Origin: Candidatus Dadabacteria bacterium
GTDB lineage: Bacteria; Desulfobacterota_D; UBA1144; Nemesobacterales; CSP1-2
Length of the DNA stretch: 64,000 nucleotides
Direction: 5' to 3'
Assembly (NCBI GenBank): GCA_963805855.1
Contig: CAWDVW010000005.1
Coordinates: 448,001-512,000, forward strand
Shown here: positions 2,468-21,523 of the stretch, piece by piece
How the letters are laid out: each line of letters starts with the position of its first letter
How positions within the stretch are numbered: the stretch's first letter is position 1
Notes under the pieces: generated by a model
What the model was told of the DNA's origin: nothing
The model's input: the letters and a program-made list of their open reading frames with translations, nothing else
The model's database searches: none
Translations under genes and position numbers: made by a program

Positions 2468-2508
2468 CCCCACCTTAATCCTCCCCCTTCATCTATAGGG
2501 GGAGGAGA
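2468..2508. repeat. REP-like palindromic element / hairpin
   Basis: CCCCCACCTTAATCCTCCCCC...GGGGGAGGA; stem TCCTCCCCC/GGGGGAGGA. Confidence 0.5.
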
Positions 2509-2661
2509 CAATTTCCCCCCCCTTTTTGAGGCGAAGCGTAGAATCTCTTGCCCCTTGAGGGAAGAACTAGATGGCGTTGATTTTTTGGTTTCTAGGTATA
2601 CCATGTAAGTAAATTTACCGAAAAGATGTAAAAACAAGTTAAATAAATCTCATTCAAAACA

Positions 2662-2723
2662 GTAAACCCCGTTCACAGAATACGTAAACCGAGTTGACGC
2701 TAAAAGTTCAACTATGCTATAAT
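2662..2723 (+). promoter_or_regulatory. sigma70 promoter of the bEBP gene overlapped by two GTAAAC-N3-GTT(C/G)AC sites
   Basis: TTGACG 2694-2699, TGnTATAAT 2715-2723; sites GTAAACCCCGTTCAC (2662) and GTAAACCGAGTTGAC (2684). Confidence 0.65.
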
Positions 2724-2736
2724 TTTAACCATTACC

Positions 2737-4287
2737 ATGAGCCCAGGAAATAAGGACTCAGAATCCAGTTTCGTCAAAGAACACAACTCCCTCTTTAACC
2801 TCTCTCGTATGATTAATGCAGAAAGAGACCTAAACGTCCTTCTCGATTTTCTGGTGAAGGAGTCGTCAAGGATTGTAAACGCAGACAGGACAACGCTATT
2901 TCTTTATGACGAAAATACAGACCAGCTCTGGTCACACCTCGCAATGGGAACGTCTGAAATAATCAGATTTGACGCGAAGCTTGGGATAGCAGGCGAATCA
3001 CTTAAGAGTGGGAAAATCATAAACGTGAAAGATGCTTATTCGTACCCAAAATTTAACCCGGAAATAGACAAAAGGACTGGCTACAAAACAAAATCGATTC
3101 TATGCGTGCCATTGAAAGATTTAAAAGGAAAAACAATAGGAGTCTTGCAAACCCTCAATAAAAATGACGGATCGTTTACAAAGCAGGACGAAGAAACTTT
3201 GGAAATCTTTGCCTCAAATGCGGCCGTCGCAATCGAAAATGCACAGTTGATAAAGGAGCTCGAAGAAGCAAAATCTCGCATCCAGCGTGAAAACGTGGTT
3301 TTAAGAGATAAGGTAAAGGGCAAGTTCTTCACAAGCAAGATAATCGGAACGAGCAAGAGGATACAGGACGTGGTAAATCTTATAGAAAAGATTGCGGACA
3401 CTCCAATCAATATTCTGATCACAGGAGAGAGCGGCACCGGGAAGGAATTGGCTGCGCGCATGATCCACTTCAACAGCTCAAGGTCAAATAAACCCTTTGT
3501 GGACATTAACTGTGCCGCTCTTCCGGAGAGCTTACTGGAGAGCGAGCTCTTCGGTATAGAAAAAGGGGTTGCCACAGGTGTTGAAAGAAGAGAAGGAAAA
3601 TTCGAGATGGCAAATGGCGGCAGCCTCTTTCTCGACGAGATCGGAGATATGAGTCTTCCCGCTCAGGCTAGGCTTCTCCGTGTGATACAGGAACAGAGGG
3701 TAAGAAGGGTCGGTGGAAAACAAGATATATCGGTTGATGTGAGGATAATCGCGGCAACAAATAAAGATCTGATCAGTGAAATTAACAAAGACCTATTCAG
3801 AGAAGATTTATATTACCGACTAAATGTTGTTCACATCCGTATGCCGTCACTAAGAGAGATAAGAGAAGATATCCCTATACTCGCTAAACATTTCTTAAAT
3901 ATTTTTACAAGCGAACTGGGACATCGACAGATGCATTTCTCTCAAGAGGCTATGGATTGTATTACGAACTACAGCTGGCCTGGCAATGTAAGAGAGCTGG
4001 AAAACGAAATCAAAAGGGCCGTCATCCTGACAGAAAGCGATGCTATAGAAAAGACAGATCTTTCAGAACAAATCCAACGTGAGATGCAAGTAATGGGTTC
4101 TACACTTGTGAGGTCGTATGCAAGCGGAGATAGCCGATCTCTTAAAGAAACTGTCGAAGAAATTGAGATAGAAATGATAAAAGGCGCCCTGGAAAAAACA
4201 CGAGGAAACAAGCAGAAGGCATCAGAAATTCTTGGAATAACAAGGCAGGGATTGATAAAGAAGATAAAGAGATACGAGTTACTATGA
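2737..4287 (+). CDS. GAF-domain sigma54-dependent Fis-family transcriptional regulator (bEBP)
   Basis: N-terminal GAF (NKNDGSFTKQDE), Walker A GESGTGKE, Walker B LFLDEIG, FREDLYYRLNV, WPGNVREL, C-terminal HTH; GAFTGA loop reads GVATGV. Confidence 0.92.
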   Translation: MSPGNKDSESSFVKEHNSLFNLSRMINAERDLNVLLDFLVKESSRIVNADRTTLFLYDENTDQLWSHLAMGTSEIIRFDAKLGIAGESLKSGKIINVKDAYSYPKFNPEIDKRTGYKTKSILCVPLKDLKGKTIGVLQTLNKNDGSFTKQDEETLEIFASNAAVAIENAQLIKELEEAKSRIQRENVVLRDKVKGKFFTSKIIGTSKRIQDVVNLIEKIADTPINILITGESGTGKELAARMIHFNSSRSNKPFVDINCAALPESLLESELFGIEKGVATGVERREGKFEMANGGSLFLDEIGDMSLPAQARLLRVIQEQRVRRVGGKQDISVDVRIIAATNKDLISEINKDLFREDLYYRLNVVHIRMPSLREIREDIPILAKHFLNIFTSELGHRQMHFSQEAMDCITNYSWPGNVRELENEIKRAVILTESDAIEKTDLSEQIQREMQVMGSTLVRSYASGDSRSLKETVEEIEIEMIKGALEKTRGNKQKASEILGITRQGLIKKIKRYELL

Positions 4288-4465
4288 TCTAACTTTACAA
4301 TTTCAAAACAGAAAAACCCTACTCAACATCAATCAAAAGGGTTAGATTCTCGTACTAAACCGATTCCTTCATTTCTTAATACCTATTGATATTGGGAACA
4401 GAAAGACCCCATTACCTTACAAATCCTGCTATAATCATAAGTTGATATAATATGACGGGTGATTT

Positions 4466-5935
4466 ATGAGTACAACACACGATACCGTAACAGTTAACGA
4501 TATGCATTCAGAAGAGGAAACCTTAAGGGAAAAATTAAACCGGATGCATCTCTTCGCCGAGCTTTCAGCGGAACATATTAACAGCTTGGTCGCTAAATCT
4601 AAAGAGCAACATTTTTCACCAGGGACTGTTGTTTGCCGAGAGGGAGAATACGGCGACACGTTTTTTGCTATTCTTGAGGGTTCCGTAGAGATCACTATCA
4701 AAACCGCTGGGTACGACAGTTTGACTCTCGCCAACCTTGAAGAGGGTGACGTTTTCGGGGAAATGGCTGCATTATCAGGTTATCCAAGGAGTGCCACAGT
4801 TTCTGCCAAGGACGACTTACGCCTGCTAGAGATACCCTCAGAGGTTCTCAAGGAATTAATGAAGATTTCTCCTAAGTTCAGGGAAATAATCGAAGAAAAA
4901 TATACCGCACGAGCGGTTCGTACATATCTGAGAAAGGTACCGCTCTTTGGAAATTTGAGCGACACCATGCTCGAGGAACTGGAAGGTAAGGTCAAATTAA
5001 AATCATTCAATCAGTCGGATGTTATATTCAGGGAAGGCGATCCCGGTGATTCTCTATATATAATACGGAATGGATTCGTCAAGATAACAAAGCAAAGTGG
5101 GGATAAAGACCAGATAATCGCTTATCTTGCGCAGGGAAGCTACTTCGGGGAGATGGCACTTCTTGAAGATGAAAAACGAAGCGCAACGGTATCAGCCTTC
5201 ACAAAGGTTGAGACAATCCAGGTGGTAAAGGACGATTTTAACACACTGCTACTTACAGATCCAAAATTGGCTGAAGAGGTGAACGACATCATTATGGAGC
5301 GAAAGCTCAAGACCCTCGAGGTCCAGAGGGATCCGGCAAAGGCCGAGAGGCTTGAAACGCTGGTGGAGAAGGGAATTATACAGAGTGAGAGTCTTCTAAT
5401 CATTGACTTAGCAACCTGTATTCACTGTAACAATTGTGTTGAGGCCTGTGAGGACCGACATGGATATCCGCGCCTTGACAGGAGGGGAACACGGTTCGCC
5501 GAAATATCTGTTCCCGTTGCGTGTCGTCTTTGCCAAGACCCGGTTTGCCTTATCTGCAATTTCGATGCTATAAAAAGGGCGCCAACAGGCGAGATCTATG
5601 TGATAAATGATAAATGCATAGGGTGTGCGGGATGCGCAATTAGATGCCCATATAATGTTATCCAGATGGTCTCAACCAAGAAAGAGAGTAAATCTGGAGT
5701 GTTTGACATTATTGGAACCTTCTTTGGCAGGGACGAAAGACCGGCTGCGGAAGATGAGGAGGAGCGCAAACCTAAGCCGAAACGTATTGCGATTAAATGT
5801 GACAATTGTATGGGTTATAGCGATACCGCATGCACTAATAACTGCCCAACAAATGCCATTCGGTGGGTGAACCCCCTTGAATACTTTAGAGATCTTGAGG
5901 ATGTATTAACAAAACGGGGCAAATATCAATATTAA
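4466..5935 (+). CDS. Tandem cyclic-nucleotide-binding domains fused to a DmsB/NrfC-like 4Fe-4S polyferredoxin
   Basis: Two FGEMA...RSATV phosphate-binding cassettes; CIHCNNCVEAC, CRLCQDPVCLIC, CIGCAGCAIRC, CDNC...CTNNC. Confidence 0.88.
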   Translation: MSTTHDTVTVNDMHSEEETLREKLNRMHLFAELSAEHINSLVAKSKEQHFSPGTVVCREGEYGDTFFAILEGSVEITIKTAGYDSLTLANLEEGDVFGEMAALSGYPRSATVSAKDDLRLLEIPSEVLKELMKISPKFREIIEEKYTARAVRTYLRKVPLFGNLSDTMLEELEGKVKLKSFNQSDVIFREGDPGDSLYIIRNGFVKITKQSGDKDQIIAYLAQGSYFGEMALLEDEKRSATVSAFTKVETIQVVKDDFNTLLLTDPKLAEEVNDIIMERKLKTLEVQRDPAKAERLETLVEKGIIQSESLLIIDLATCIHCNNCVEACEDRHGYPRLDRRGTRFAEISVPVACRLCQDPVCLICNFDAIKRAPTGEIYVINDKCIGCAGCAIRCPYNVIQMVSTKKESKSGVFDIIGTFFGRDERPAAEDEEERKPKPKRIAIKCDNCMGYSDTACTNNCPTNAIRWVNPLEYFRDLEDVLTKRGKYQY

Positions 5936-5948
5936 ACATTTCAGGAAC

Positions 5949-6230
5949 TCAACAAAATATGTTCTTTTCTTCCTGATAAGTACGCATAACTTCCCGCAAG
6001 TCCTCGGGATCGAGTTGCTCAGATAGTCGCGTAGAGCCAACCAAGTCACAAAACATTACGGTCACCTGACGCCGTTCGGGTTCACGAGCTAAACGGTCAG
6101 TGACTCTAGTTTCGGAAGACAAGTCCAATGATCGTGGGGCAGTTGTGTCTCCTTTGACCAATCTTGTTCCACACTTCATGCAAAATAATGCTTCCTTAGG
6201 GTTGTCATACTCACAGTTTGGACATGGCAT
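5949..6230 (-). pseudogene. Truncated zinc ribbon-cyclase gene (5' remnant)
   Basis: CPNC...CMKC then ERRQVTVMFCDLVGSTRLSEQLDPEDLREVMR; homology ends abruptly at ~5971. Confidence 0.8.
5971..6079. repeat. 109-bp direct repeat, copy A (copy B at 9322-9430)
   Basis: 107/109 identical by manual alignment. Confidence 0.9.
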
Positions 6231-6266
6231 TTTAATTGCCTCTCTGAACTATTGAGATACGAGAAC

Positions 6267-9200
6267 CTATGACAATTCATCAAGAACTAGCTTCGCTTCC
6301 TTTAGATCTCTGGTGTTGAATCCTTCTTCAAACCAACTATAAATATTCAAAAGGATCTTCTTACCTTCTTCTGCTCTATCCGTGTTTTTCAGCCACCGTC
6401 CAAGGCTGGTCGCTGCTCGTAGTTCGAAAGACTTGGCTCCCTGTTCTTTAGCCAAAGTCAGTGATTTGAGCAGACATTCTTCAAAATTTTCGCGATCCTT
6501 TTTGGGAAGACCCTTAATTGAGCCCTTGGCGGTCATCTTAAGTAAGAGTAATTCGCCCTTTAGTCTCAATAGCTCGGGATCATAATTATGTTCGTTTTTT
6601 GATCTGGCGACTTCTAAAAGCTCTTCTACGAGTTTAAGACCCTGTTCAGGCATATTGGCTAAAATGTACAGTTCTGCAAGCATACTCATATAACCGGGGT
6701 CCTTATACCCCAATTTCTCCATCGAATCAGCAATAACAGAAATCCCTGCCCCGATTTCACCATTTTGCCCTAGTATCCAGCCCTTAAAGATTGATGCCCA
6801 TAACACATGAACCGGTAATTTTTTTAAGTTTGCATGTTCTATGATTAGATCAGCCTGCTTTTCAGTTTGTTCAATATCCCCTCTTTGCTTATGAATGAAT
6901 GCCGTAGCCATATGTGCGGTAATCAAACTGAAGTTATGAGATTGTGCCAACTTTATGGCTTCATATCCCGCCTTAATAGCCCTATCGGGATAACCCATTG
7001 TCCAACTGATTAAACACAAAGCCCTGTGGCAACACATGCCCGGGTCGTGCCCTCCATAATTGAAACAATGTGTTTCATGCATCTCCGGACTGTATAGCTT
7101 CCGTCCTTCTTCCAGGTGCTCATATGAGCGTTTATAATCGGGGATCAACATCAATGTGGTCCAAAGGGCATGGTGGGCCTGCAAAAGCAGCTCTTTGTCA
7201 TCTTCTTTCTTGGCGATCCTATAGAGCTTCTCACCGAGCTGAATTTCTACCTCTGTGTCTTGCGAGAAATGATAGCCTAGCCATACACCCCATAAAACGG
7301 GGAAAACGTCGGGTGAATCTCCGATCTGCTCACTTAGTGGCCATGCCCTGTCATAAATCTCCTTAGTTTGTTTAGACCCGTATCCAGTAGTTGCAAAGGA
7401 TGCTATTCCTAGATTCTTTAGTAACTTGAGCTCCCGATCTGAATTTTTTTCAGAAGCTGGCAATGAATCATACCAATCTAGGGCCTTACATAGGAATTCA
7501 TAGGCTTCTTTAAATGCGCCACTTCGAAGGGCTGTCTCACCAGCCAGTTGGAGATAATTAATGGTTTTGATAGCAGCTTCTCTATAGTCCATATTTTCTC
7601 CAGCCGCCAGAGCCCAGTGGTATGCTAAGATTGGGTAATAGGCCATTAAATCATTCTTATATTTTTTCTCATAAGCCATTGCAGCTCTATGATGATATTG
7701 CCTACGCTTGCTCTTAAGCAATGACTCATAAGCCGCGTCACATATTAGGGCATGTTTAAAGATGTATGTTGATTCAGGAGGAATGCCTTGTTGATAAAGT
7801 ATTTCCACATCGACTAACTGAGACAAAGAATCCCTTAACGTGTCATCATCCATGGATGATACTTCAGACAGCATCTCATAAGAAAATTCACGACCAAGCG
7901 TTGACGATAATTGTGCCACTTCCCTCACTGGTGCAAGGCGATCCAGCCTCGCCATTAGAGAGTCTTGTATAGATGAAGGTATTGCCAATGATGGTATTGA
8001 TCCTGTCACCTCATAATTCTCATCATGCTCTTTCAGAAAATCGGATTCCAACACCATCTTTGTCAATTCTTCCACGAAAAGTGGTACACCATCAGTTTTG
8101 GCAACCAACTGCTGAATGACTTCCCGCGGAAGCGACTTTCCCCCTGCTACACTCTTAGCCATAAGCTCAATATCCTTTGCAGATAGTCGAGTTAAATTTA
8201 TCTCTGTGATATTTTCTGAACTGTCCCAAGAATGGGTAAAATCCGGACGGAATGTCAAAAGAGTTAAAATTCGTGACTTAGAAATATCATCAAAGATGAG
8301 ACTCAACAACTCAAGTGTTGAAGGATCCACCCAATGCATGTCCTCCAATATGAATAAAACAGGAGAATTCTCCATCGCATTCCTTAGCCATTTAAGTAAG
8401 GCTTTCTGTGTCTTTTGCTTTTGAATCTGTGGAGATAAGTTAAGAGGCTGAATATCATTGTTAACCGGGATTGTAAGCAAAGAAGCAAAAAGTTGTAACG
8501 ATTCGTTTGTTGAAAAACCCATTTTCGCTTGACCTCTTTTAAGCTTCTCTAATTTTTTCTCAGGGGAATCTGCCTTACTTATCTCCAGAAATCGCTCTAG
8601 ATAATCAATCACAGGATATAGAAAACTATTCTGAAAATACGGTAAGCATCGGGCACTTATTATATGATGTGGCTCGTCAACTAAGCGGCCTTTTAAGACT
8701 TCTACAAGACGTGATTTGCCAATTCCAGCCTCTCCACTCAGGAGAACAAATTGTCCAAGACCTTCTTTAGCCTTCTCCCATGAAGCAAGCATAAGTTCAA
8801 TTTCCTTTTTCCTCCCCACAAGAGAAGTCAATCCTTTGGTGGTAGCTACTTCTAGGTGACTTTTTAAACCACTCTCTCCCACTACCTTATATGCTTCCAT
8901 AGGCTGGGATATGCCTTTTAGAGTGTGCTGACCCGTGGATTCACACTCAAAATAACCCTCGATAAGCCGATAAGTAGCTTTACTAATTACTACCGTGTCA
9001 GTCTCGGCAAGCCCCTGTAGGCGAGCCGCTATATTTGGTGTATCACCCACTATCGCCATCTGCTCACGCACCTCTCCCGCACCCATTTCCCCTGCTATTA
9101 CCAGCCCAGTGTGAATCCCTATTCGCACTTGTAGAGGCTGTTCTAATTGCTTTTTCTGGAGGGGAAGATCCCGCACCGACTGAACAACTTCTAGACCTGC

Positions 9201-9620
9201 ATGAACGGCCCTTCGGGCATCATCCTCATGTGCCTTCGGATATCCAAAGTAAACAAGGATGCCGTCACCTAGATACTTTGCTATATGTCCATCAAATCCT
9301 TTTATTACCTTTGCGCAAACCTCCTGATAAGCACGCATAACTTCCCGCAAGTCCTCGGGATCGAGTTGCTCAGAAAGTCGCGTAGAGCCAACCAAGTCAC
9401 AAAACATTACGGTCACCTGACGCCGTTCGGCATCTTGTTTTCGCTTATATATAGCTTCGTGTACTTCCTCTGAAAGAGTAGTCCCGCACTCTCCGCAGAA
9501 CTTCGATCCCGAGGGATTCTCAAAATTGCAATTAGGGCATAGTCGCCCGAGTGGACTACCACACTCATTACAAAACTTCATTCCATCCGGATTTTTAAAA
9601 CCGCATTTTGAGCAGGCCAT
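6267..9620 (-). CDS. Double zinc ribbon-class III cyclase-STAND/AAA ATPase-TPR protein
   Basis: CxxC x4, FCDLVGST, KYLGDG, GDTPNIAARL, Walker A GEAGIGKS, EDMHW, LMARLDRL, helical C-terminus. Confidence 0.92.
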   Translation of the reverse strand: MACSKCGFKNPDGMKFCNECGSPLGRLCPNCNFENPSGSKFCGECGTTLSEEVHEAIYKRKQDAERRQVTVMFCDLVGSTRLSEQLDPEDLREVMRAYQEVCAKVIKGFDGHIAKYLGDGILVYFGYPKAHEDDARRAVHAGLEVVQSVRDLPLQKKQLEQPLQVRIGIHTGLVIAGEMGAGEVREQMAIVGDTPNIAARLQGLAETDTVVISKATYRLIEGYFECESTGQHTLKGISQPMEAYKVVGESGLKSHLEVATTKGLTSLVGRKKEIELMLASWEKAKEGLGQFVLLSGEAGIGKSRLVEVLKGRLVDEPHHIISARCLPYFQNSFLYPVIDYLERFLEISKADSPEKKLEKLKRGQAKMGFSTNESLQLFASLLTIPVNNDIQPLNLSPQIQKQKTQKALLKWLRNAMENSPVLFILEDMHWVDPSTLELLSLIFDDISKSRILTLLTFRPDFTHSWDSSENITEINLTRLSAKDIELMAKSVAGGKSLPREVIQQLVAKTDGVPLFVEELTKMVLESDFLKEHDENYEVTGSIPSLAIPSSIQDSLMARLDRLAPVREVAQLSSTLGREFSYEMLSEVSSMDDDTLRDSLSQLVDVEILYQQGIPPESTYIFKHALICDAAYESLLKSKRRQYHHRAAMAYEKKYKNDLMAYYPILAYHWALAAGENMDYREAAIKTINYLQLAGETALRSGAFKEAYEFLCKALDWYDSLPASEKNSDRELKLLKNLGIASFATTGYGSKQTKEIYDRAWPLSEQIGDSPDVFPVLWGVWLGYHFSQDTEVEIQLGEKLYRIAKKEDDKELLLQAHHALWTTLMLIPDYKRSYEHLEEGRKLYSPEMHETHCFNYGGHDPGMCCHRALCLISWTMGYPDRAIKAGYEAIKLAQSHNFSLITAHMATAFIHKQRGDIEQTEKQADLIIEHANLKKLPVHVLWASIFKGWILGQNGEIGAGISVIADSMEKLGYKDPGYMSMLAELYILANMPEQGLKLVEELLEVARSKNEHNYDPELLRLKGELLLLKMTAKGSIKGLPKKDRENFEECLLKSLTLAKEQGAKSFELRAATSLGRWLKNTDRAEEGKKILLNIYSWFEEGFNTRDLKEAKLVLDELS
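9322..9430. repeat. 109-bp direct repeat, copy B
   Basis: Matches 5971-6079 except at 9332 and 9375. Confidence 0.9.
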
Positions 9621-9983
9621 GCCTCAACCCCCGAATTGGTCAAAGACTTTATCAATAAAAATTGAGTGGATTAACTGATTCAACAAACTCGAGCTCACCA
9701 CCGCCAAATCAATCCCATTTCAAATGCTTATTATCTAAAATTTGGTCCAAGAATGCAAGCTAACCAAAAATAACTCCTAGAATCGAAGCTGATTCAATAT
9801 ACCATTTATCCCAATATGTTTAATTTCCTTGGTTTGATGTTTGAGTAGGAAACTTTTATAATTTCGTATCATCTAATTAACAATTTTCTTCCTTTTGGGT
9901 GGATGAGATCGATTTGGCTGAAGTGGAGAGGCCATTTTGACCTGTGATCTTCTCAATAATCTGAGTACACCAGGACTTAATCA

Positions 9984-11075
9984 ATGACACAAAAAGGCTA
10001 TTTAGTAGCTGCTAACATCTCGGGATATGAAGAATTTCTCACGAAGGCTGAGCTTGAGCATGCACAATCGATTGTAAATGATCTAGTAAATACCCTCATA
10101 GATGGTATCAGCCATCCGCTAGTCTTCTCAAAAATAGAAGGAAATTCCATTTTCCTATGCTCACCTGAAGGTAGTTTTGTACAAGGTCAGACCTTGCTGG
10201 AAATAATTGAGAACCTGTATTGTACCTTCGCTAGGACACTAGAAACTATGTCTCGGAACACCGTGTGTCCTTGCCAAGCATGCCAGCTTATGTCTGGTTT
10301 GGATCTCAAATTTATCGTCCACTACGGAACATTTAGCTTGACTAAAATTGATGGTCAGCACGATCTGATGGGTCCGGACGTAATGATTCTGCGTGAATTA
10401 TTTAAAAGCCCTATCTCCGATGCTGCAGGTAATAATGGCTATCTGTTCATCACAAGCGCGTGCACAGATGCCATGGGATTAAGCAGGTTGACTGATCGTA
10501 TGAAGACCTACTCCGCCACGTTTGAAGACCTTGGAGAATTAAAAGGGCTTATCCACGACCTCCACGCCGTTTGGGAACGCGAACGCGAGCAACGTCGCAT
10601 CACGATTAAACCTGAGGACGCCTGGCTTCAGGTTGAGACAGATCTACCCGTTTCCTCGGCTTTAGCCTGGGAATACGTCACAGAACCGAATTTTAGGAAA
10701 CAGTGGCTTTCGGCAAGCAATGTTACGGCCTATACAAACGATAAGGGCCGAATGGGAATCGGTACTACATATATTTGCTCCCATGGGAATTATAAGATAA
10801 ACCAGGTCATAGTCGATTGGCGCCCCTTCGAATATCTGACAGTTGACACTGCGATGCCGATGAAGGGGATGCAGAGAAATACCACGCAGCTCACCCCTCA
10901 TGGAAGCGGAACCCGTGTTTCATGGAGATTTGATGAAATAACGGGGAGAAACCGAATACATACGCTTATGCTGAGGATGCTTTTGAATTCTATGAAGGGT
11001 AAGATAACGAGCCGCTTAAAAGAGGGCGGCAAGAAGGTACTAAAAATGATTGAAGACGATCGAATTGCGGAGTAA
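9984..11075 (+). CDS. DUF2652 (cyclase-like)-SRPBCC protein, catalytically degenerate paralog
   Basis: ANISGY / KIEGN in place of ADISGY / KLEGD; CPCQAC motif; C-terminal SRPBCC-like domain (VDWRPFEYLT). Confidence 0.8.
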   Translation: MTQKGYLVAANISGYEEFLTKAELEHAQSIVNDLVNTLIDGISHPLVFSKIEGNSIFLCSPEGSFVQGQTLLEIIENLYCTFARTLETMSRNTVCPCQACQLMSGLDLKFIVHYGTFSLTKIDGQHDLMGPDVMILRELFKSPISDAAGNNGYLFITSACTDAMGLSRLTDRMKTYSATFEDLGELKGLIHDLHAVWEREREQRRITIKPEDAWLQVETDLPVSSALAWEYVTEPNFRKQWLSASNVTAYTNDKGRMGIGTTYICSHGNYKINQVIVDWRPFEYLTVDTAMPMKGMQRNTTQLTPHGSGTRVSWRFDEITGRNRIHTLMLRMLLNSMKGKITSRLKEGGKKVLKMIEDDRIAE

Positions 11076-11173
11076 TTGATTAAATGCTTCGTATTTGAGA
11101 GGAGCGATTTAAAAACTTTCTTTGATTGAATCAAATTTTGTTTAGACAATAGTGATAAGGGGAGGTATTAATT

Positions 11174-12286: not shown

Positions 12287-12301
12287 TTTTGGTTGGTAGA
12301 T

Positions 12302-13297
12302 CTATGGCGAGAGGTTATTGATCGTCTCCCTCGCCAAATCTCTCGAGGCTTTGGGAGGCAAAATAATGATAGGAATGTCCGCGCCCGCTTTCCTGAATTC
12401 CTCGATTTTGCTTCTGCCGGCATTCGCCGAACCTGTAACCGCGACTGAATTCAGCAAGGTATCGCTGACACCTTCGATTGCTTCTGTTTTGCTTCCCTTT
12501 TTCCAAGCCTCAACAATCGAATTGGCTTCATGTTGGAATCCGTACCTGCTGATCAATCCAGAATAAAAAGTCCCCATCGCACCAATGTAATAGGCGATGT
12601 ATTCCTTGATTAATCTTCGTGTGCCATCCTCGTCATCAGAAACTAGCGCTGGGATGTAGGGACAAATTTTGATCTTATCAAACGCCTTTCCTCCCTTTTC
12701 AGCTCCAGCGCGTAGGTAATCTTCGGTTTGTTTGTAATGTTGAGTTGGAACCAGAAACGGAATCCAACCATCGGCAATTTCACCTGTAAGGGTTATATTC
12801 TTAGGTCCAATAGATGCAATATAAATCGGTATTACCTCTCTGAATGGCTTAAATTGGAGACTAAAGTTTTTTAGTTTAAAAATCTCGCCCTGATAATTTA
12901 CTCTTTGTCCACTAATTATCATCCTTATTATTTCGACGTATTCTCGAGTCCTTCGTAGTGGTTTCTCAAACTTAACACCATGCCAGTTTTCAATCACTAC
13001 GGGTCCGCTTGTACCCAGGCCGAGTATCACTCTTCCCTCTGAGATCTCATCTAATGTCGCAATAGTTTGTGCAATAATCGCCGGGGTTCTGCTGTAGACC
13101 GAAACGATTCCCGTTCCGAGCTTAATCCTTTTTGTATGTAGCGCGATCACCGAGAGAATAGAGAATGCGTCCCTACCCCACATCTCGGGAACCCAGATAG
13201 AATCATATCCAAGTCCTTCTGCAAGTTGGGCAAAATCAATGATCTCGTCTTTTGTGATATCATTCCAGTAAGGAATTACAAGACCTATTGCGGACAA
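12302..13297 (-). CDS. LLM-class (luciferase-like) flavin/F420-dependent oxidoreductase
   Basis: AEGLGYDSIWVPE, LGTGI, LDEISEGRVILGLG, GEIADGW; likely TTG start at 13297 after RBS AAGGAGGT (ORF track start 13378). Confidence 0.88.
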   Translation of the reverse strand: MSAIGLVIPYWNDITKDEIIDFAQLAEGLGYDSIWVPEMWGRDAFSILSVIALHTKRIKLGTGIVSVYSRTPAIIAQTIATLDEISEGRVILGLGTSGPVVIENWHGVKFEKPLRRTREYVEIIRMIISGQRVNYQGEIFKLKNFSLQFKPFREVIPIYIASIGPKNITLTGEIADGWIPFLVPTQHYKQTEDYLRAGAEKGGKAFDKIKICPYIPALVSDDEDGTRRLIKEYIAYYIGAMGTFYSGLISRYGFQHEANSIVEAWKKGSKTEAIEGVSDTLLNSVAVTGSANAGRSKIEEFRKAGADIPIIILPPKASRDLARETINNLSP

Positions 13298-13341
13298 TTT
13301 GTCACCTCCTTCAAATTCAGCATCTATATCATAATTTTGCC

Positions 13342-13478
13342 AATCCCGCAACGAGTGAGTGGGAATCCGTCTGGCCATTGTCCCGACTTCCTTTATTGGA
13401 AATCGATATAAATTATCTTTTGGATCACCGATTACGCTTTTCCCGCATGAACTAAGCGGGGATTACTCGGTGATGACA
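13342..13478. repeat. Degenerate palindromic repeat units related to the GIY-YIG-flanking element
   Basis: ATCCCGC...GTGGGAATCC and nested hairpin ATCACCGA...TCCCGC...GCGGGGA...TCGGTGATGACA. Confidence 0.6.
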
Positions 13479-13524
13479 AATGAGATATCGCCATCAGCGG
13501 TAGTCATTGAAAACCATCCTCTTG

Positions 13525-13600
13525 TGTCATTCCCGCGGATTGTTAGCGGGAATCCATATTTTTCTTTCTGGATCCCCGACAACTGTCCTCGGGGATGACA
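13525..13600. repeat. TGTCAT...ATGACA-bounded two-hairpin REP-like element
   Basis: TGTCATTCCCGCGGATTGTTAGCGGGAATCCA ... TGGATCCCCGA..TCGGGGATGACA. Confidence 0.8.
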
Positions 13601-13664
13601 AATTACTCGTCATTTCAATTAGAGCATTATACTTACAGTGTCGGTATTAAAATACAGCTAGACT

Positions 13665-13955
13665 ATGAACGCGTACTTTGTTTATATAATGGCGAGTAAA
13701 AGAAACGGTACCTTGTACGTTGGTGTAACCTACAATCTAATGAAAAGAGTTTACGAACACAGAACTGATATAATCCAGGGATTTACGAAGAAATATTCGA
13801 TACATAAATTAGTTTATTACGAACAGACAAATGACATTTACAACGCAATCGAAAGAGAAAAACGTCTAAAAAAATGGCACCGAAAGTGGAAAATAAAGCT
13901 GATTGAGAAGTTTAATCCGAATTGGGATGATTTGTATGACGAGGTAACAGGCTAA
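13665..13955 (+). CDS. Small GIY-YIG nuclease (UPF0213-like)
   Basis: YFVYIMASKRNGTLYVGVT, LVYYE, AIEREKRLKKW, NPNWDDL. Confidence 0.9.
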   Translation: MNAYFVYIMASKRNGTLYVGVTYNLMKRVYEHRTDIIQGFTKKYSIHKLVYYEQTNDIYNAIEREKRLKKWHRKWKIKLIEKFNPNWDDLYDEVTG

Positions 13956-13974
13956 TTGTAAAACCAACCTAAGC

Positions 13975-14007
13975 TGTCATTCCCGCGGATTGTTAGCGGG
14001 AATCCAT
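13975..14007. repeat. 33-bp exact copy of the left hairpin of the 13525 element
   Basis: TGTCATTCCCGCGGATTGTTAGCGGGAATCCAT identical to 13525-13557. Confidence 0.85.
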
Positions 14008-14161
14008 GCTCCTGGTTTTGGATCGCCAATCCAAATTGTGCCAGTTAGGCTTTCGAAGTACTGAAATCCCATTTAATGATGTTAAGATATTTTATAAATA
14101 ATGTCCAAAATTCCAAAAGACTTATTAAGCGAAGTAAACAAATGGAGAAATTTAGCAGAGA

Positions 14162-14661
14162 ATGAGACCGACTAACATTATAATTCCTGGTCCTGGGCAG
14201 GAATCGGTCTGGGACTATCCTAGACCTCCCCGTGTAGAACCGGTAAAAAGTAGAATTCGTGTTGAGTTTGGAGGTCTTGTAATCGCAGATAGCAATAAAA
14301 CCTATAGGGTGTGAAGAGACCGCAAGTCCCCCGGTTTATTACATACCTCAAGCAGATATACAAATGAAATATCTGGAGCCTGGCAATAAATCGACCCTCT
14401 GTGAATGGAAAGGAAAAGCCAGATATTGGACTGTCCGCGTTGGGAAGAAATGCTCTGAAAACGCCGGCCTGGAGCTACCCAGAGCCCTGGGATGGTTTTG
14501 AGTTGATAACCGATTACATAGCCTTCAATGCGAGCAAGATGGACGCCTGCTACGTTGGAAATGAAAAAGTGTTGCCGCAACCGGGTAATTACTATGGGGG
14601 ATGGATAACATCGGACATTGTAGGCCCCTTCAAAGGCGAACCGGGAACTGAGGGGTGGTAG
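14162..14661 (+). pseudogene. DUF427-domain protein with two frameshifts (possibly sequencing error)
   Basis: PGPGQESVWDYPRPP, then ETASPPVYYIP...CEWKGKARY, then AWSYPEP...YGGWIT in three successive frames. Confidence 0.8.
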
Positions 14662-14901
14662 AAACTAAGTTTCAAAAACGCAAAATAACAGTTAACTTAT
14701 CTCCGCACTGTAAGACAATTACCCTTATTAAACAGATACCGAAGGCATTGGTAACCAAAGCAGCTTCTTCATCTTAAGAATGAAGATGCTACTGGTTTTT
14801 CCGTTCGCAACCAATTCTTTATTTTCATTTTTATGACAAATCTCATATAATATTTCAATAATAAAACGAATAAATTTGGTCGAATATTATTTCTTGAGAA
14901 T

Positions 14902-17900
14902 ATGGAAACTAAGATTTTAGTCTGTGCGCATTGCGGATTTCAAAATCCTGAGAATGCTAAGTTCTGCGTTGAATGTGGAACGAAGGTGGAGATCAGATGT
15001 CAGAACTGTGGCAAAGATAACCCTCCTACCCATAAGTTCTGCTTCGAATGCGGAGGAAAGCTCGGCAAAAGTGCAGATGTTAAAGAAGATAAGCAACTTA
15101 ATTTAAGTGAACCCCAGAGTTACATCCCAAAACACCTTGCCGATAAAATTCTCGTCAATAGAGCCCGCCTTGAAGGAGAGCGAAAGCTGGTAACGGTGCT
15201 ATTTGCCGACGCTTCGAGCTTCACTGCATTATCAGAAAAATTAGACCCTGAGGAGGTTCGCACTTTGATGAATCAGGCCCTCAGGCTTATTATAGATCAG
15301 GTACATCGCTATGAGGGCACAATCAACAAATTTACGGGCGATGGCGCAATGGCACTATTCGGTGCCCCTATTGCCCAGGAGGATCATGCCTATAGGTCGG
15401 TAACTTCGGCTTTGGGTATTCAGAAGGCCATCAGATTATACGGTGAAGAGCTTAAGTTAGCGCAGGGGATAGACTTCAAGATGCGAATTGGCATTAATAC
15501 CGGGCTCGTAGTCGTTGGAAGTATTGGTAATGACCTAAGTATGGAATATACAGCCATGGGAGATACGGTTAATCTGGCTTCACGTTTAGAAGGCCTGGCT
15601 GAACCGGGGTCTATCCTGATTAGTGAGAGTACCTACAAACTCGTGAAGGATTACTTTGAGTGTATCCCACTCGAAGAAGCTCGCGTTAAGGGAAAAAGTC
15701 AGCCTGTAAAGGCCTGTACAGTAATTGGGAAAACGGATCGAAAAGTAAGATTTGATTTATCCCTGGAGCGAGGGTTAACAAAATTTGTAGGAAGGGAAAA
15801 GGAACTGGGGCTTATAAAGGATTCCTTTGAAAACGTAAAGAAAGGACACGGACAGATTTTATGTATTATTGGCGAAGCGGGGTTGGGAAAATCAAGATTG
15901 GTTCACGAGTTTAAAACTACGCTCCGTGATGAAGAAGTGAGCTACCTGGAAGGGAATTGCATCTCTTACGGCAAATCATTTTCTTATCTTCCAATCATTG
16001 AGATATTAAAGAATAGTTTTGATATTGATGATAGAGACGATGACGACCTGATTAAGGCTAAAGTGGAGATTGCGATAAACAGGATCGACGATAAATTAAC
16101 GGATACGATCCCACTTATTCTCGATCTCCTTTCTGTAAAAGCCGATTCTGATATATTGAAAAACTTAGATGCAGCACAGAAAAGACAAGCTATATTTGAC
16201 GCCCTTAAAGCCATAATCCTGAGAATGAGTCAAACTAAACCGCTGGTTTTAGCAATTGAAGACCTCCATTGGATTGATAAAACCTCAGAGGAACTTCTTA
16301 ATAGTATTGCAAGGAGTATGGGTAATGAACGAATTATGCTTCTCTTTACCTGTCGCCCGGGATTTGTTCATAGCTTTATCGACAAACCTTACTACACCCA
16401 GATCGCGCTAACGTCTCTTTCAACAGGCGAATGCAGGTTTCTAGTAGAATCGATTCTGAAAAGTGAAGAAATATCCGAAGAATTAATGGGACTAATACTT
16501 AAAAAAACCGGAGGTAATGCACTATTTGTTGAAGAGGTAACAAGGTCGCTTATCGATAGCGGAATAATCGTCAAGAGCGATGGACGATACACGGCAGAGA
16601 AAGAAGTATCTGAGATTGAAGTCCCGAGCAGTGTACAAGATATAATCATGGCCCGGATAGACCGACTTGAGGAAACCCGAAAATCGAAACTCCAAGTATG
16701 CTCGGTTATCGGAAGGGAGTTCAGTTTTGAGCTACTTCAAAAGATATCTGCTATTGACGAAAATGAACTTCGGGAACGCCTGATGACACTCACAAACTCC
16801 GATCTGATCTACGAAAGGGGGGTTTACCCGGACGTTGACTACCTGTTCAAACATGCTCTTACCCTAGAAGTTGCATACAACACACTTTTGCTTCAAAAGA
16901 GAAAGGAACTCCATGAAAAGGTGGGTAGTGCAATCGAAGAGATGTATCCTTCCCGTCTTGAAGATTTCTATGGTGTCCTTGCCCATCATTTTAGTAAGAG
17001 TGATAACAGGGAAAAGGCGGTTAATTATTTAACACTGGTTGGCAAAAGGGCAAAGGATGTTCTTTCAACCGATGAAGCCCTTACCAATTTTAACGAAGTG
17101 CTAAAACTTCTTGGGCAAATGGAAAAGACCGATACCGGCAAGGCTAAAAGGATAGATATTCTATTTGAGATAGAAAACATATACGACAACATGGCAAAAA
17201 GAGATGATCAGAAAAAGATACTCGAAGAAATAATAACTCTATCTAAAGATATAAATGATAAGAGCAGGCTTTCAGATGGTTACATCAAGCAAGGCGAACT
17301 CTTGAGTGTGATGGGAGAATACCAGAAAGCAAAGGAAATCTGCCAATCAGCGCTTACCCTTAAAAGGGAGATAAGAGATAAGATAGGCGAGGGAAAAGCA
17401 TTGAGGGGTATGGGATTCATAAATTGGCGTTCGGCGGATTACAACGACGCTCTGAAGTACCACAAAGAGGCCTTAATGGTGCATAGAGAAATGGGCAGTC
17501 GCGAAGCAGAAGGATTTGAACTTATCAGCCTGGGAGAAATCTATAGGAAGCTTGGTCAATATGAAGATGCCCTGTCACATCTTCACGAGGCCTTTAACAT
17601 ACATAGAGGCGCGAGAATCGTAACAGGTCAGAACGTTTCCGCATTTAACATCGGAACCGTCTACGGAGAAATGGGCAATTACGAGAAATGCGCGGAGTAC
17701 TATCGGGAATGCTGGAGAGTAATTAAAGAGGGCGGGTTCAGGAGCTTTCGTGCATACTCGCATCTTATTGTTCCAATCAGTTTGGGAAATGTATACTCGC
17801 GTTTGGGTAATTACGAAGATTCACTCCAATACTACACTGAAGCGCTGGATATAAGCAGAGGCCTTGGGGATAAGACCGAAGAGGGCAACATACTGAGTTA

Positions 17901-18660
17901 CATTGCTGCCACATACAATATTTTGGGAAAATATGATGAGTCTATAAAATATTACAAAGAGGCCTTGAAGATCTATCGAAAATTAGGAGACAAGGTAGCA
18001 GAAGGCGCAGTTCTCAATCACATTGGTAATACCTACCGTCAATATCTTAACGACTATCGAGAGGCCCTATCATATTATAAAGAGGGTTTGGAAGTTGCAA
18101 AAAAGAACGGCGACGAAGATGGGGCCAGAAGTATTCTTAACAACCTGGGGGTAGTAAATTGGAATCTTGGTCTCCACGAAGAAGCCCTTGCTTACTACCG
18201 CGAGGCATTGGAAATATGTAAGAGGATTGGAAATACGATCGGAGAAGGTGTTACGCTCAGTGGAATGGCAATTGTTTATCTGAGCCTTCGAAAGTACGAT
18301 GAGGCCTTGAAGTGTAACGAGGATGCCTTGAATATTCTAAAGCCAACGGGAGACCAAAAGGTTGAGGGTTATATCCTAAATTCTATCGGGAACGTGTATA
18401 ATGAGATGGGTGATTACCAGAAGGCTTGGAGGTACTATCAAGAGACTCTAAGGATAAGAAGGGAGCTCCAGGATAAAAAGGGAGAGGCCTGGGCACTTCA
18501 TAATCTCGGCAGGGTCTATACGAACCTGTCTAATTATGAGGAGGCATCGAAACATTACGAGGAAGCCCTTTGCCTGGCTGAAGAACTGGGAGAGGAAGAA
18601 TTGACCGTCACCACCAAGGACGCTTTGAGCGAGATCAAAGGAATGGAGAAGAGTATTTAG
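14902..18660 (+). CDS. Double zinc ribbon-class III cyclase-STAND ATPase-long TPR array protein
   Basis: FADASSFT, KFTGDG, YTAMGDTVNLASRL, GEAGLGKS, EDLHW, about 11 ~40-aa TPR-like repeats. Confidence 0.93.
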   Translation: METKILVCAHCGFQNPENAKFCVECGTKVEIRCQNCGKDNPPTHKFCFECGGKLGKSADVKEDKQLNLSEPQSYIPKHLADKILVNRARLEGERKLVTVLFADASSFTALSEKLDPEEVRTLMNQALRLIIDQVHRYEGTINKFTGDGAMALFGAPIAQEDHAYRSVTSALGIQKAIRLYGEELKLAQGIDFKMRIGINTGLVVVGSIGNDLSMEYTAMGDTVNLASRLEGLAEPGSILISESTYKLVKDYFECIPLEEARVKGKSQPVKACTVIGKTDRKVRFDLSLERGLTKFVGREKELGLIKDSFENVKKGHGQILCIIGEAGLGKSRLVHEFKTTLRDEEVSYLEGNCISYGKSFSYLPIIEILKNSFDIDDRDDDDLIKAKVEIAINRIDDKLTDTIPLILDLLSVKADSDILKNLDAAQKRQAIFDALKAIILRMSQTKPLVLAIEDLHWIDKTSEELLNSIARSMGNERIMLLFTCRPGFVHSFIDKPYYTQIALTSLSTGECRFLVESILKSEEISEELMGLILKKTGGNALFVEEVTRSLIDSGIIVKSDGRYTAEKEVSEIEVPSSVQDIIMARIDRLEETRKSKLQVCSVIGREFSFELLQKISAIDENELRERLMTLTNSDLIYERGVYPDVDYLFKHALTLEVAYNTLLLQKRKELHEKVGSAIEEMYPSRLEDFYGVLAHHFSKSDNREKAVNYLTLVGKRAKDVLSTDEALTNFNEVLKLLGQMEKTDTGKAKRIDILFEIENIYDNMAKRDDQKKILEEIITLSKDINDKSRLSDGYIKQGELLSVMGEYQKAKEICQSALTLKREIRDKIGEGKALRGMGFINWRSADYNDALKYHKEALMVHREMGSREAEGFELISLGEIYRKLGQYEDALSHLHEAFNIHRGARIVTGQNVSAFNIGTVYGEMGNYEKCAEYYRECWRVIKEGGFRSFRAYSHLIVPISLGNVYSRLGNYEDSLQYYTEALDISRGLGDKTEEGNILSYIAATYNILGKYDESIKYYKEALKIYRKLGDKVAEGAVLNHIGNTYRQYLNDYREALSYYKEGLEVAKKNGDEDGARSILNNLGVVNWNLGLHEEALAYYREALEICKRIGNTIGEGVTLSGMAIVYLSLRKYDEALKCNEDALNILKPTGDQKVEGYILNSIGNVYNEMGDYQKAWRYYQETLRIRRELQDKKGEAWALHNLGRVYTNLSNYEEASKHYEEALCLAEELGEEELTVTTKDALSEIKGMEKSI

Positions 18661-18708
18661 CTTTAGTTTCAAAAAAGTTTAAAAAATATTATAGGGAGGT
18701 TAATAGAG

Positions 18709-18972
18709 ATGCCAAGATATCTAATCACCCGGACGGTGCCCCCATTGACGGAAGAACAAATAGCAGCGGCAGGAAAACTTTCTAAAGCTGTTACCGAAGA
18801 GTTGGGAATAAAGTGGATAAAGAGTTACTACTCAGAGAAAGAGGGAAAATTCTACTGTGAGTATGAAGCACCAAACGTTGATTTAATCTATGAACACGGA
18901 AGACGGGCACAACTCCCGGTGGATTCTGTCTCTATGATTTCGGGCGAGTTTGATCCCAGCATGTTTAAGTAG
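18709..18972 (+). CDS. DUF4242-family protein, copy 1
   Basis: MPRYLITR, WIKSYYS, FYCEYEAP, YEH, LPVDSV; RBS GGAGG. Confidence 0.8.
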   Translation: MPRYLITRTVPPLTEEQIAAAGKLSKAVTEELGIKWIKSYYSEKEGKFYCEYEAPNVDLIYEHGRRAQLPVDSVSMISGEFDPSMFK

Positions 18973-19011
18973 TTATAATATAGTCAGAGTTAATTTAGAG
19001 AAATATTACTT

Positions 19012-19275
19012 ATGCCAAAATTCCTTACTGTGCGGACGGTGCCTCCTTTAACAGAGGAGCAGATCTCCTCATCGTCAAAACGATCCATGACTGTTGGCGA
19101 GGAGATAGGGGTAAAGTGGATAAAGAGCTATTATTCAGCGAAGGATGGAAAGCTCTATTGCGAATGGGAAGCAACGAGCGTAGAAGCGATATATGAACAC
19201 GCAAAGCTCATGAATAGTCCAGTAGATTCCGTTTCAATCATATCGGACGAATTTGACCCCAGTATGTTTAAGTAA
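19012..19275 (+). CDS. DUF4242-family protein, copy 2
   Basis: Paralog of 18709; shared EFDPSMFK C-terminus. Confidence 0.8.
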   Translation: MPKFLTVRTVPPLTEEQISSSSKRSMTVGEEIGVKWIKSYYSAKDGKLYCEWEATSVEAIYEHAKLMNSPVDSVSIISDEFDPSMFK

Positions 19276-19355
19276 AAACTCTGGTTTTATTCCAAGATTA
19301 CCGCTTTCGATGAATCCTTAATTATGCTTACTAGAAAATGAAAGGCTCAGGTGTC

Positions 19356-19411
19356 GCAATGACAGGCGAGGGAAAGACCTGTACCAAGCTACCAAGAGTT
19401 CACTAGTTAAA
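19356..19411. repeat. Dispersed 56-bp repeat (copy of 48666-48721)
   Basis: 46/56 identical ungapped; hairpin decayed in this copy. Confidence 0.65.
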
Positions 19412-19425
19412 ATGGAGAATTTTAG

Positions 19426-19692
19426 GTGCCCAAATTTTTAGTTACTCGAACTGTTCCCAATCTGACCAAGGAAGAAATTGATTCGGCAAACAAACGCGAC
19501 GTAGCCATCTGCAGAGAGATGGGAACCGTGAGATGGATAAAAAGCTATCATTCCGCAAAAGATGGAAAGTTCTATTGTGAGTATGAGGCACCGAGCGTAG
19601 ATGCAATCTATGAACACGCAAGGCGGGCAAAATTACCGGTAGACTCGGTTTCACTGATTTCCAATGAATTTGATCCAAGCATGTTTAAGTAG
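19426..19692 (+). CDS. DUF4242-family protein, copy 3
   Basis: GTG start; paralog of the two upstream genes. Confidence 0.8.
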   Translation: MPKFLVTRTVPNLTKEEIDSANKRDVAICREMGTVRWIKSYHSAKDGKFYCEYEAPSVDAIYEHARRAKLPVDSVSLISNEFDPSMFK

Positions 19693-19742
19693 AAATCTAA
19701 AGGACATATCTTCATGGACTAAGTACCGATATCTATAAAGTC

Positions 19743-19778
19743 GTAAACGTTGTTTCCACCTGTGTAAACTTCGTTGAT
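19743..19778. promoter_or_regulatory. Putative bEBP upstream activating sequences (tandem GTAAAC-N3-GTT sites)
   Basis: GTAAACGTTGTTTCC (19743) and GTAAACTTCGTTGAT (19764), 21 bp apart, ~110-130 bp upstream of the -24 element. Confidence 0.6.
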
Positions 19779-19871
19779 GCGATGACGCTACTAATGTTGT
19801 TCGCACATGTTAATCTAAAATCCTAAAGATAGCTCACAAAACAAATACGTTTGGGGACTTGATGTGATATT

Positions 19872-19887
19872 TGGCATGAAACTTGCT
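19872..19887 (+). promoter_or_regulatory. sigma54 (-24/-12) promoter
   Basis: TGGCATG-AAAC-TTGCT with canonical GG-N10-GC spacing, 52 bp before the ATG at 19940. Confidence 0.8.
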
Positions 19888-19939
19888 AATTTGCGTTGAA
19901 TAGGATAAACCTGACAAAATCATAAACTAGGAGGAAACT

Positions 19940-21358: not shown

Positions 21359-21466
21359 TCCTGGGGAAGCATAAGCTAGATACCGCTCAAAAATGCTTAA
21401 CCAGCGATTGTTGGGACACCACCTTGCTGGGAATATCTTAATCACGGCTGAGTCTACACAATCGAT

Positions 21467-21491
21467 AGGCGAGGTTTTCCAACCTCGCCTT
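21467..21491. terminator. Hairpin (terminator or REP-like)
   Basis: AGGCGAGGTT-TTCC-AACCTCGCCT downstream of the FAD oxidase. Confidence 0.5.
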
Positions 21492-21523
21492 CTTCACATT
21501 ATTTATAGGAATCTGTCAGTATT

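Follow-up and report, generated by a model that had tools for sequence, protein, structure and literature searches.

The only relevant paper returned by a full-text literature search for the loop motif GVATGV was that of Kazakov et al. (2015; PMC4641369), in which an activator of Desulfovibrio (Nitratidesulfovibrio) vulgaris, DVUA0100, is predicted to switch on the type III secretion operons of pDV1 from their sigma-54 promoters despite carrying this loop. In the sections of that study drawn on here, DVUA0100 is the only one of 37 D. vulgaris activators with a GVATGV loop, and its 18 predicted sites, of the 15-bp form GCCAAC-N3-GTTGGC, often stand in pairs 23 or 32 bp apart upstream of sigma-54 promoters. 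A direct check of pDV1 (L120) located such sites at 40150 and 40182, followed 97 nt on by TGGCATACTTGCTGCT. Here we describe a comparable arrangement in a 64,000-nucleotide stretch of a Candidatus Dadabacteria bacterium assembly (contig CAWDVW010000005.1, positions 448,001 to 512,000), hereafter the window. Two tandem pairs of the motif GTAAAC-N3-GTT lie (i) at the promoter of a gene encoding a one-component sigma-54 activator with GAF, AAA+ and helix-turn-helix (HTH) domains, and (ii) upstream of a sigma-54 promoter that precedes a gene for a flavin adenine dinucleotide (FAD)-linked oxidase.

The window system shares with DVUA0100 the rare GVATGV loop, the one-component design, and tandem sites, each 15 bp long and arranged as 6-N3-6 with AAC-N3-GTT at the centre; in both, 93-97 nt separate the proximal site from the -24 element, and the regulator gene is predicted to be controlled by its own sites. 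BLASTP aligned the two proteins with 45% identity in the AAA+ domain (131/288) and 50% in the HTH domain (20/40), the alignment starting at residue 166 of the window protein, with no counterpart of its GAF region in DVUA0100. Counted by hand for four of the 36 D. vulgaris HTH domains in supplement 2 of PMC4641369, identity to the window protein was 20/42 for DVUA0100 and 16-17/42 for the three others. The helix R-x-G-L-x-K-K, read by eye, occurs among those 36 domains in DVUA0100 only; outside that set, the window protein and the Calditrichia activators described below have it too. Similarly, a comparison that took in all DVUA0100 rows and about 16 regulatory systems of supplement 3 yielded the 6-N3-6 AAC/GTT layout for DVUA0100 alone. 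The window protein and its sites thus display the loop, the HTH type (GNK..A.E.LGITR.GL.KK) and the 15-bp sites (xxxAAC-N3-GTTxxx) of a GVATGV clade, but not a shared N-terminal sensory region: DVUA0100 has an uncharacterised N-terminal region in place of the GAF domain. The outer half-site bases also differ (GCC in DVUA0100 sites, GTA in the window), as do the tandem spacing (23 or 32 bp versus 21-22 bp) and the targets (type III secretion genes versus an FAD oxidase gene). Further, the DVUA0100 gene lies inside a sigma-54 operon, implying positive feedback, whereas the window sites lie on a sigma-70-like promoter.

Other activators resemble the window system in part. NorR, NifA and FhlA have the same domain order and multiple enhancer sites upstream of a -24/-12 promoter; they differ from the window protein in the L1 loop, and the window GAF domain is nearest to those that bind cyclic nucleoside monophosphates (cNMP). 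Partial matches of the window protein to the corresponding NCBIfam models all fall below the curated cut-offs (nifA 384/529, NorR 362/476, FhlA 285/830). TyrR boxes have TGTAAA/TTTACA half-sites with a spacer one base longer than that of the window motif, and sigma-70 promoters overlapped by the enhancer sites of NtrC or PspF are repressed by these proteins. Supplement 3 of PMC4641369, in the parts used here, records related half-sites, often tandem and upstream of sigma-54 promoters, for DVU0804 (GTAAAC-N5-GTTTAC) and for DVU0539/DVU0946 (TGCAAAC-N4-GTTTGCA); GTAAAC thus belongs to the established half-sites of activators, and this kind of motif is read by Fis-type HTH domains. Their spacers, however, are 5 and 4 bp rather than 3, and these proteins are response regulators with canonical loops. 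PexR of Myxococcus xanthus, as the consulted sections of its description have it (PMC12754779), also combines GAF, AAA+ and HTH domains, recognises palindromic repeats in tandem, acts from upstream as an activator of sigma-54 promoters and down-regulates a sigma-A promoter overlapped by its sites. It departs from the window protein in its GAFTGA loop, its metal-binding, H2O2-sensing GAF domain and its motif (CACCG-N6-CGGTG, in three repeats), and the promoter it represses is that of a target gene rather than its own.

Motif pairs and the sigma-54 promoter

The two motif pairs are a real and non-random feature of the window. A scan of both strands for GTAAAC-N3-GTT gave exactly four matches in the 64 kb, all on the + strand and all within the two pairs (Table 1), compared with an expectation of 0.29 (standard deviation 0.52); none of 100 dinucleotide shuffles reached four. 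The preliminary description of this DNA had placed the four sites, with start-to-start spacings of 22 bp in pair 1 and 21 bp in pair 2, at just these positions, and had named background frequency as what would speak against it; the motif is well above background. When up to three mismatches to GTAAAC-N3-GTTNAC were allowed, 162 single sites were found in the window, and the only ones in tandem at 19-24 bp were again the two pairs. The left half-site is invariant across the four sites, and the right half consists of GTT followed by CAC, GAC, TCC or GAT. Only nine bases recur, the spacers and linkers being different from site to site. The full palindrome GTAAAC-N3-GTTTAC with up to two mismatches is not significant alone (4 found, 1.95 expected; 12 of 100 shuffles reached 4), so that the signal resides in the nine invariant positions together with the tandem arrangement. 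Neither intergenic region holds any other repeat besides a weak, partial third copy downstream of pair 2, which has a poor left half and is out of helical phase (26 bp), and an Rfam scan of window positions 1-30000 gave no match.

Pair 2 faces the best sigma-54 promoter candidate in the window. Eight sequences match TGGCAY-N5-TTGCW with no more than one mismatch, and TGGCATGAAACTTGCT alone does so with none; relative to the stricter TGGCAC it has one departure, and its GG and GC stand ten bases apart. It begins 93 nt beyond the end of pair 2 and lies 52 nt before the ATG of the oxidase gene at 19940, which has an AGGAGG ribosome-binding site. This perfect match is the well-spaced -24/-12 element previously pointed out at 19872. 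The distances of the pair 2 centres in Table 1 depend on a transcription start placed from the -12 element; the layout agrees with the range of about 80-150 bp upstream of a -24/-12 promoter at which enhancer-binding proteins occupy dyad sites. A consensus scan found no sigma-70-like promoter on the + strand around pair 2. The sigma-54-like sequence TGGCATTTTAATTGCC at 6225-6240 (+), which departs from the pattern at one position, was set aside: it runs antisense into a cyclase gene and lacks a neighbouring copy of the motif.

The same layout recurs elsewhere. Genome contigs were scanned once for the tandem pattern, with 10-kb flanks; at least 120 stretches matched, and the 119 loci kept, 80 of them with long flanks, constitute a sample. 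One is a 17.5-kb contig of a Desulfobacterota bacterium (L007) in synteny with the window: the genes at 6270-9623, 9981-11072, 11159-12283, 26191-29496 and 29802-30458 have orthologues there at 67-90% protein identity, and the genes are 71-85% identical as DNA, while in the intergenic DNA no similarity was detected except the motif itself. The L007 pair (GTAAACATTGTTGAC and GTAAACGCTGTTGCT, 22 bp apart) is located between a zinc-ribbon cyclase gene and a divergent open reading frame (ORF) of 93 aa with a signal peptide. At a distance of about 100 nt, and in the orientation of the small ORF (opposite to the motif strand), stands a perfect sigma-54 consensus, TGGCACGCGTGTTGCA, with a ribosome-binding site and an ATG after it; the pair centres lie near -135 and -157 from a start inferred from the -12 element. 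From the single-site rate in the window, the chance of a tandem pair in 17.5 kb is estimated at below 1e-5. That the L007 site is a relic of the window arrangement was ruled out by the lack of DNA homology around the pairs.

Two Calditrichia loci (L067 and L012) each contain two perfect GTAAAC-N3-GTTTAC palindromes 22 bp apart, which start in the stop codon of a gene encoding a REC-AAA+-HTH activator. In both, TGGCAC/T-N5-TTGTA follows 85 nt after the pair and leads into an operon that encodes a lipoprotein together with an outer-membrane protein of the FadL/TodX type. The activators have GSFTGA loops, a REC domain and the recognition helix LSRAGLHKK. In three loci from two phyla (L067, 10001-10004; L012, 10035-10038; L026, 10001-10004), the stop codon TAA of the activator gene is the TAA inside the first GTAAAC.

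To the 122 motif clusters made up of the listed loci and the window we applied a geometry test, scoring sigma-54 elements with up to one mismatch that lie 40-260 nt away and point away from the cluster. Four clusters were positive: window pair 2 (93 nt), L007 (100 nt), L067 (85 nt) and L077 (241 nt), relative to a background of 0.435% among 20,000 random positions in the same loci. Three of the four fall at 85-100 nt; the L077 match, inside an 8.7-kb ORF, is probably due to chance. L012 has an element with two mismatches at 85 nt. Because the combination of a tandem pair and, 85-101 nt later, a -24/-12 element recurs in L007 and the Calditrichia and, with a sister motif, at the pDV1 type III secretion promoter (97 nt), we interpret the motif as a sigma-54 enhancer, or upstream activating sequence (UAS), and pair 2 (19743-19778) is very probably the UAS of the promoter at 19872. 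The earlier reading of pair 2 as an upstream site is therefore well supported. A tandem scan near -24/-12 elements like the one that had been proposed as its check, here of genome contigs, bore it out in L007, L067 and L012, but among the matches listed it also turned up the same motif beside MarR genes, to which we return below.

Table 1. Sites, promoters, terminator-like elements and genes of the proposed circuit (window coordinates)
Feature	Position	Strand	Remarks
Terminator-like hairpin with T run	2498-2519	+	After thioesterase gene
Site 1a, GTAAACCCCGTTCAC	2662-2676	+	Centre about -61 from inferred start of sigma-70-like promoter
Site 1b, GTAAACCGAGTTGAC	2684-2698	+	22 bp after site 1a; right half overlaps -35 hexamer
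Sigma-70-like promoter, TTGACG-18-TATAAT	2694-2723	+	11/12, TG-extended; consensus match only
Activator gene, 516 aa, one-component sigma-54 type	2737-4287	+	GAF, Sigma54_activat, AAA_lid_14, HTH_8
Site 2a, GTAAACGTTGTTTCC	19743-19757	+	Centre about -148 from inferred start (about 19898)
Site 2b, GTAAACTTCGTTGAT	19764-19778	+	21 bp after site 2a; centre about -127 from inferred start
Possible degenerate third site, ACTAATGTTGTTCGC	19790-19804	+	Weak; right half and spacer like site 2a (repeat family D1)
Sigma-54 (-24/-12) promoter, TGGCATGAAACTTGCT	19872-19887	+	93 nt after site 2b
Target gene, 472-aa FAD-linked oxidase, BBE/VAO type	19940-21358	+	FAD_binding_4 and BBE domains
Weak terminator-like site	21556-21572		After oxidase gene
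Sigma-70-like promoter	21573-21602		After oxidase gene

The activator and its proposed circuit

The protein encoded next to pair 1 has the features of a sigma-54 activator, with one departure. Its AAA+ domain matches PF00158 (4.7e-68) and AAA_lid_14 (4e-24), and by eye its Walker A, Walker B, sensor and arginine-finger motifs are intact (GESGTGKE, LFLDEIG, AATN, REDLYYRL, GNVRELEN); its HTH is of the Fis type (HTH_8, 5.4e-14, residues 472-513), with the recognition helix ITRQGLIKK. The L1 loop, however, is GVATGV and not GAFTGA (residues 276-281; window 3560-3580). A G[VI]A[TS]GV loop is present in all 120 of the homologues listed, which come from Thermodesulfobacteriota, Nitrospinae, Binatia, Methylomirabilia, Acidobacteria and Tectomicrobia; across this large clade the loop has no aromatic residue. 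In the GAF domain, NKNDGSFTKQDE at residues 141-152 fits the NKFDE-type motif NK-x-F-x3-DE, a pattern matched by 99 of 121 family members, and the closest solved relatives are cNMP binders (CyaB2, 1ykd, 7.8e-34; PDE5, 1e-28; PDE2, 4e-24). Both the motif and the closest similarity to cyclase and phosphodiesterase GAF domains place it in the cNMP-binding type. The ligand is thus predicted to be a cyclic nucleotide, and the idea of cyclic AMP (cAMP) or cyclic GMP (cGMP) as the input is compatible with this domain.

Upstream of the activator gene, the hairpin after the thioesterase gene suggests that the activator gene has its own promoter, and conservation of the N-terminus in homologues supports the start codon chosen. 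The region 2400-2800 contains a single sigma-70-like match, and the overlap of its -35 hexamer by the second site of pair 1, noted previously, was confirmed.

We postulate the following circuit, which on balance we favour as a whole. The motif GTAAAC-N3-GTT(K)AC would be the recognition site of a dimeric Fis-type HTH, and pair 2 would be bound by two dimers, placed on one face of the DNA because the two sites are two helical turns apart. Upon a signal, the bound activator would oligomerise into its active ring and loop to the sigma-54 closed complex at 19872, whereupon transcription of the FAD-linked oxidase gene would be driven from that promoter. Protein bound to pair 1 (2662-2698) would cover the -35 hexamer of the activator's own sigma-70-type promoter and so limit its level; we give this self-repression an even chance. 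With a GAF domain of the kind that binds cyclic nucleotides, the circuit would couple cNMP from the many neighbouring cyclases to sigma-54 transcription. Experimental work on PexR provides a precedent for such a double role of one GAF activator.

The protein that binds the sites is probably the GAF regulator itself, to judge from sequence comparison. This assignment is indirect, resting on its being the sole activator in the window, on the pair at its own promoter and on the predicted sites of DVUA0100, its closest studied relative by loop and HTH; hence the previously proposed action of this bacterial enhancer-binding protein on the gene at 19940 is well supported as regards pair 2 being the UAS of that promoter, and less so as regards the protein that occupies it. 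The circuit is of a known kind, its activator being a variant in two respects, the GVATGV loop and the cNMP-type GAF domain, and we infer that a GVATGV loop is still competent for sigma-54.

Several observations weigh against this circuit. In PspF, the loop phenylalanine together with a threonine contacts sigma-54 region I, according to the consulted part of PMC3467059, and the GVATGV loop has no such phenylalanine; activity of GVATGV proteins at sigma-54 promoters is a prediction, drawn from the computational regulons in the sections used of PMC4641369 and from the present window. The activator promoter is a consensus match whose -10 element ends 13 nt before the ATG, and the gene has no Shine-Dalgarno sequence. 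Between the UAS and the promoter at 19872, no consensus site for integration host factor (IHF) was found; overall the IHF consensus occurs at background frequency (91 found, 95.6 expected). The L007 contig ends before the expected place of the activator gene, and no motif was found upstream of the window orthologue (26149-29499) of the L007 cyclase gene; site positions are therefore not conserved gene by gene. In a Devosia locus (L026), where an activator gene has the pair in its stop codon, there is no recognisable -24/-12 element. Finally, D. vulgaris alone has 37 activators, and a second protein of the same specificity is possible in the present genome; the occurrence of the motif at MarR genes, discussed below, belongs here as well.

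Alternative readers of the sites

The best-surviving alternative, which we nevertheless consider unlikely, keeps pair 2 as a sigma-54 enhancer but has it bound by a canonical GAFTGA-type activator encoded outside the window; pair 1 would then mark a cascade onto the GAF regulator gene rather than autoregulation, and in one variant the GVATGV protein would merely compete for the sites as an anti-activator. The phenylalanine-free loop is as expected from this explanation, as are the dozens of activators in Desulfobacterota and the use of the same half-sites by DVU0804 (both from the sections drawn on of PMC4641369). Moreover, a different architecture is able to read the motif, since GSFTGA loops and a REC domain characterise the Calditrichia proteins encoded beside an identical copy of it. 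Against these stand the need for an additional, unseen protein and the fact that the sole activator within 64 kb has a pair on its own promoter. The 3-bp spacer, too, fits the GVATGV relative DVUA0100 and not DVU0804, with its 5 bp, in the supplement 3 entries compared. Strict retention of the loop in the 120 listed homologues speaks for a functional ATPase interface and against a decayed one, as do the intact Walker A, Walker B, sensor and arginine-finger motifs.

Alternatively, a MarR-type (or TetR-type) repressor with its gene elsewhere could use the sites as operators, the sigma-54 promoter being near by coincidence or subject to roadblock repression. Evidence for this explanation comes from the scanned loci: the 119 listed loci included 37 with palindrome-type, non-iteron pairs, 27 of them on stretches of at least 3 kb, and after L007, L012, L067 and eight loci with the pair inside or at the edge of long ORFs had been left out, the flanking ORFs of the remaining 16 were compared with Pfam. 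A MarR-family gene lies directly beside the sites, divergently, in 8 of these 16 (L001, L005, L013, L020, L024, L034, L044 and L066), a TetR gene in one (L076), and transposase or mobilisation genes in three. The MarR loci, from Bacteroidota, Actinomycetota, Acidobacteriota and Gammaproteobacteria, have the same DNA pattern as the window, two GTAAAC-N3-GTTKAC palindromes 21-22 bp apart, in divergent promoter regions in which NmrA-like, CMD or cupin genes are frequent partners. These sites appear to represent a widespread type of MarR operator, and the tandem motif is therefore not diagnostic of sigma-54 activators. The overlap of pair 1 with a -35 hexamer is likewise typical of MarR operators. 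Yet pair 2 overlaps no sigma-70-like promoter, and domain annotation of the ORFs in the 64-kb window revealed no MarR gene and, of TetR genes, only a doubtful fragment (38085-38423). Whereas the MarR operators sit in a divergent promoter next to the MarR gene and, in the test of 122 clusters, none had a sigma-54 element in the geometry scored, three independent Desulfobacterota and Calditrichia pairs stand 85-100 nt from strong sigma-54 promoters. We regard a MarR- or TetR-type repressor as very improbable here.

That the likeness of the pairs reflects chance, shared low-complexity sequence, replication iterons or repeat debris without regulatory role is scarcely credible and is already contradicted by the shuffle test, the tandem scan and the L007 promoter: although the motif was chosen after the fact by its reader, mismatched forms of the full palindrome do not reach significance, and plasmid iterons with repetition of the complete 21-22-bp unit account for many of the listed collection matches, the window has four matches for 0.29 expected, the motif alone repeats there and not the linker or spacer, no mobile or replication genes (in the window domain annotation) adjoin either pair, no rep genes accompany the nine recurring bases, and the L007 pair lies beside a perfect sigma-54 promoter.

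Most of the listed collection matches are such whole-unit repeats or lie inside ORFs. One iteron unit of 22 bp, TGCAAGGTAAACCTCGTTTTAA, is identical across small contigs that belong to Acinetobacter, Stenotrophomonas or a Desulfobacterales bin (L015, L030, L038, L043, L061, L062, L069, L071, L073, L080, L081, L091 and L107), which are probably one plasmid family or the result of bin contamination.

Gene neighbourhood and significance

Named homologues place the source of the window among uncultured Thermodesulfobacteriota, the best match being 93% identical; the closest metagenomic relatives are about 90% identical. The GAF regulator gene is the sole Sigma54_activat gene in the 64 kb and one of very few transcription-factor genes, other candidates for DNA binding being one LysR gene, the doubtful TetR fragment already mentioned and a VapB gene; no rpoN was seen in the domain annotation of the window ORFs. 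Between and around the activator and oxidase genes lie genes for a cNMP-binding/4Fe-4S protein, two DUF2652 genes, three SCO4226-like genes, and seven or eight adenylate/guanylate cyclase genes, several of which also encode zinc-ribbon, AAA_16 and TPR domains. Many unnamed proteins, spread over several phyla, share 73-91% identity with the oxidase, whose gene is probably monocistronic, since a weak terminator-like site and a sigma-70-like promoter come next. A second FAD_binding_4 gene (24014-25874), apparently split into three or four short ORFs and with no motif upstream, is possibly a decayed paralogue of the oxidase gene.

Further irregularities were observed among the cyclase genes. The gene at 26149-29499 is frameshifted near 26190, in its N-terminal zinc ribbon, relative to the 75%-identical L007 orthologue, and represents either a pseudogene or a sequencing error. 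The neighbouring cyclase gene has a truncated copy at 5949-6230 (-), a 93-aa ORF that retains a zinc ribbon and the opening 30 residues of a cyclase domain, and similar partial copies occur in L007. About 14 kb of the window (12302-26190), with a luciferase-like monooxygenase gene, a GIY-YIG gene, a 1252-aa cyclase-TPR gene, the three SCO4226-like genes, the FAD oxidase gene and a further cyclase gene, is missing from the syntenic position in L007 (6887-7636), which holds only the UAS, the sigma-54 promoter and the gene for the small secreted protein. Elsewhere, the window contains a VapB-PIN toxin-antitoxin pair at its left end (4-611), an IS110 transposase fragment (34035-34367, -) and a LysR gene divergent from a catalase-peroxidase gene (34579-37848).

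A broader proposal, which we put forward tentatively and think doubtful, is that members of the GVATGV clade with a cNMP-type GAF domain, which lack the supposedly indispensable GAFTGA loop, are direct receptors for cAMP or cGMP from the surrounding multi-domain cyclases and switch on sigma-54 promoters through a sigma-54 contact unlike that of PspF and NtrC. If the circuit described here is correct, it would be the second independent case, after the computational prediction of 2015, that ties a GVATGV protein to genuine sigma-54 promoters, and the need for the loop phenylalanine would become directly testable. A cNMP-type GAF domain on a sigma-54 activator, set amid some eight cyclase genes, would further provide bacterial cyclic-nucleotide signalling with a transcriptional route other than CRP-type proteins.

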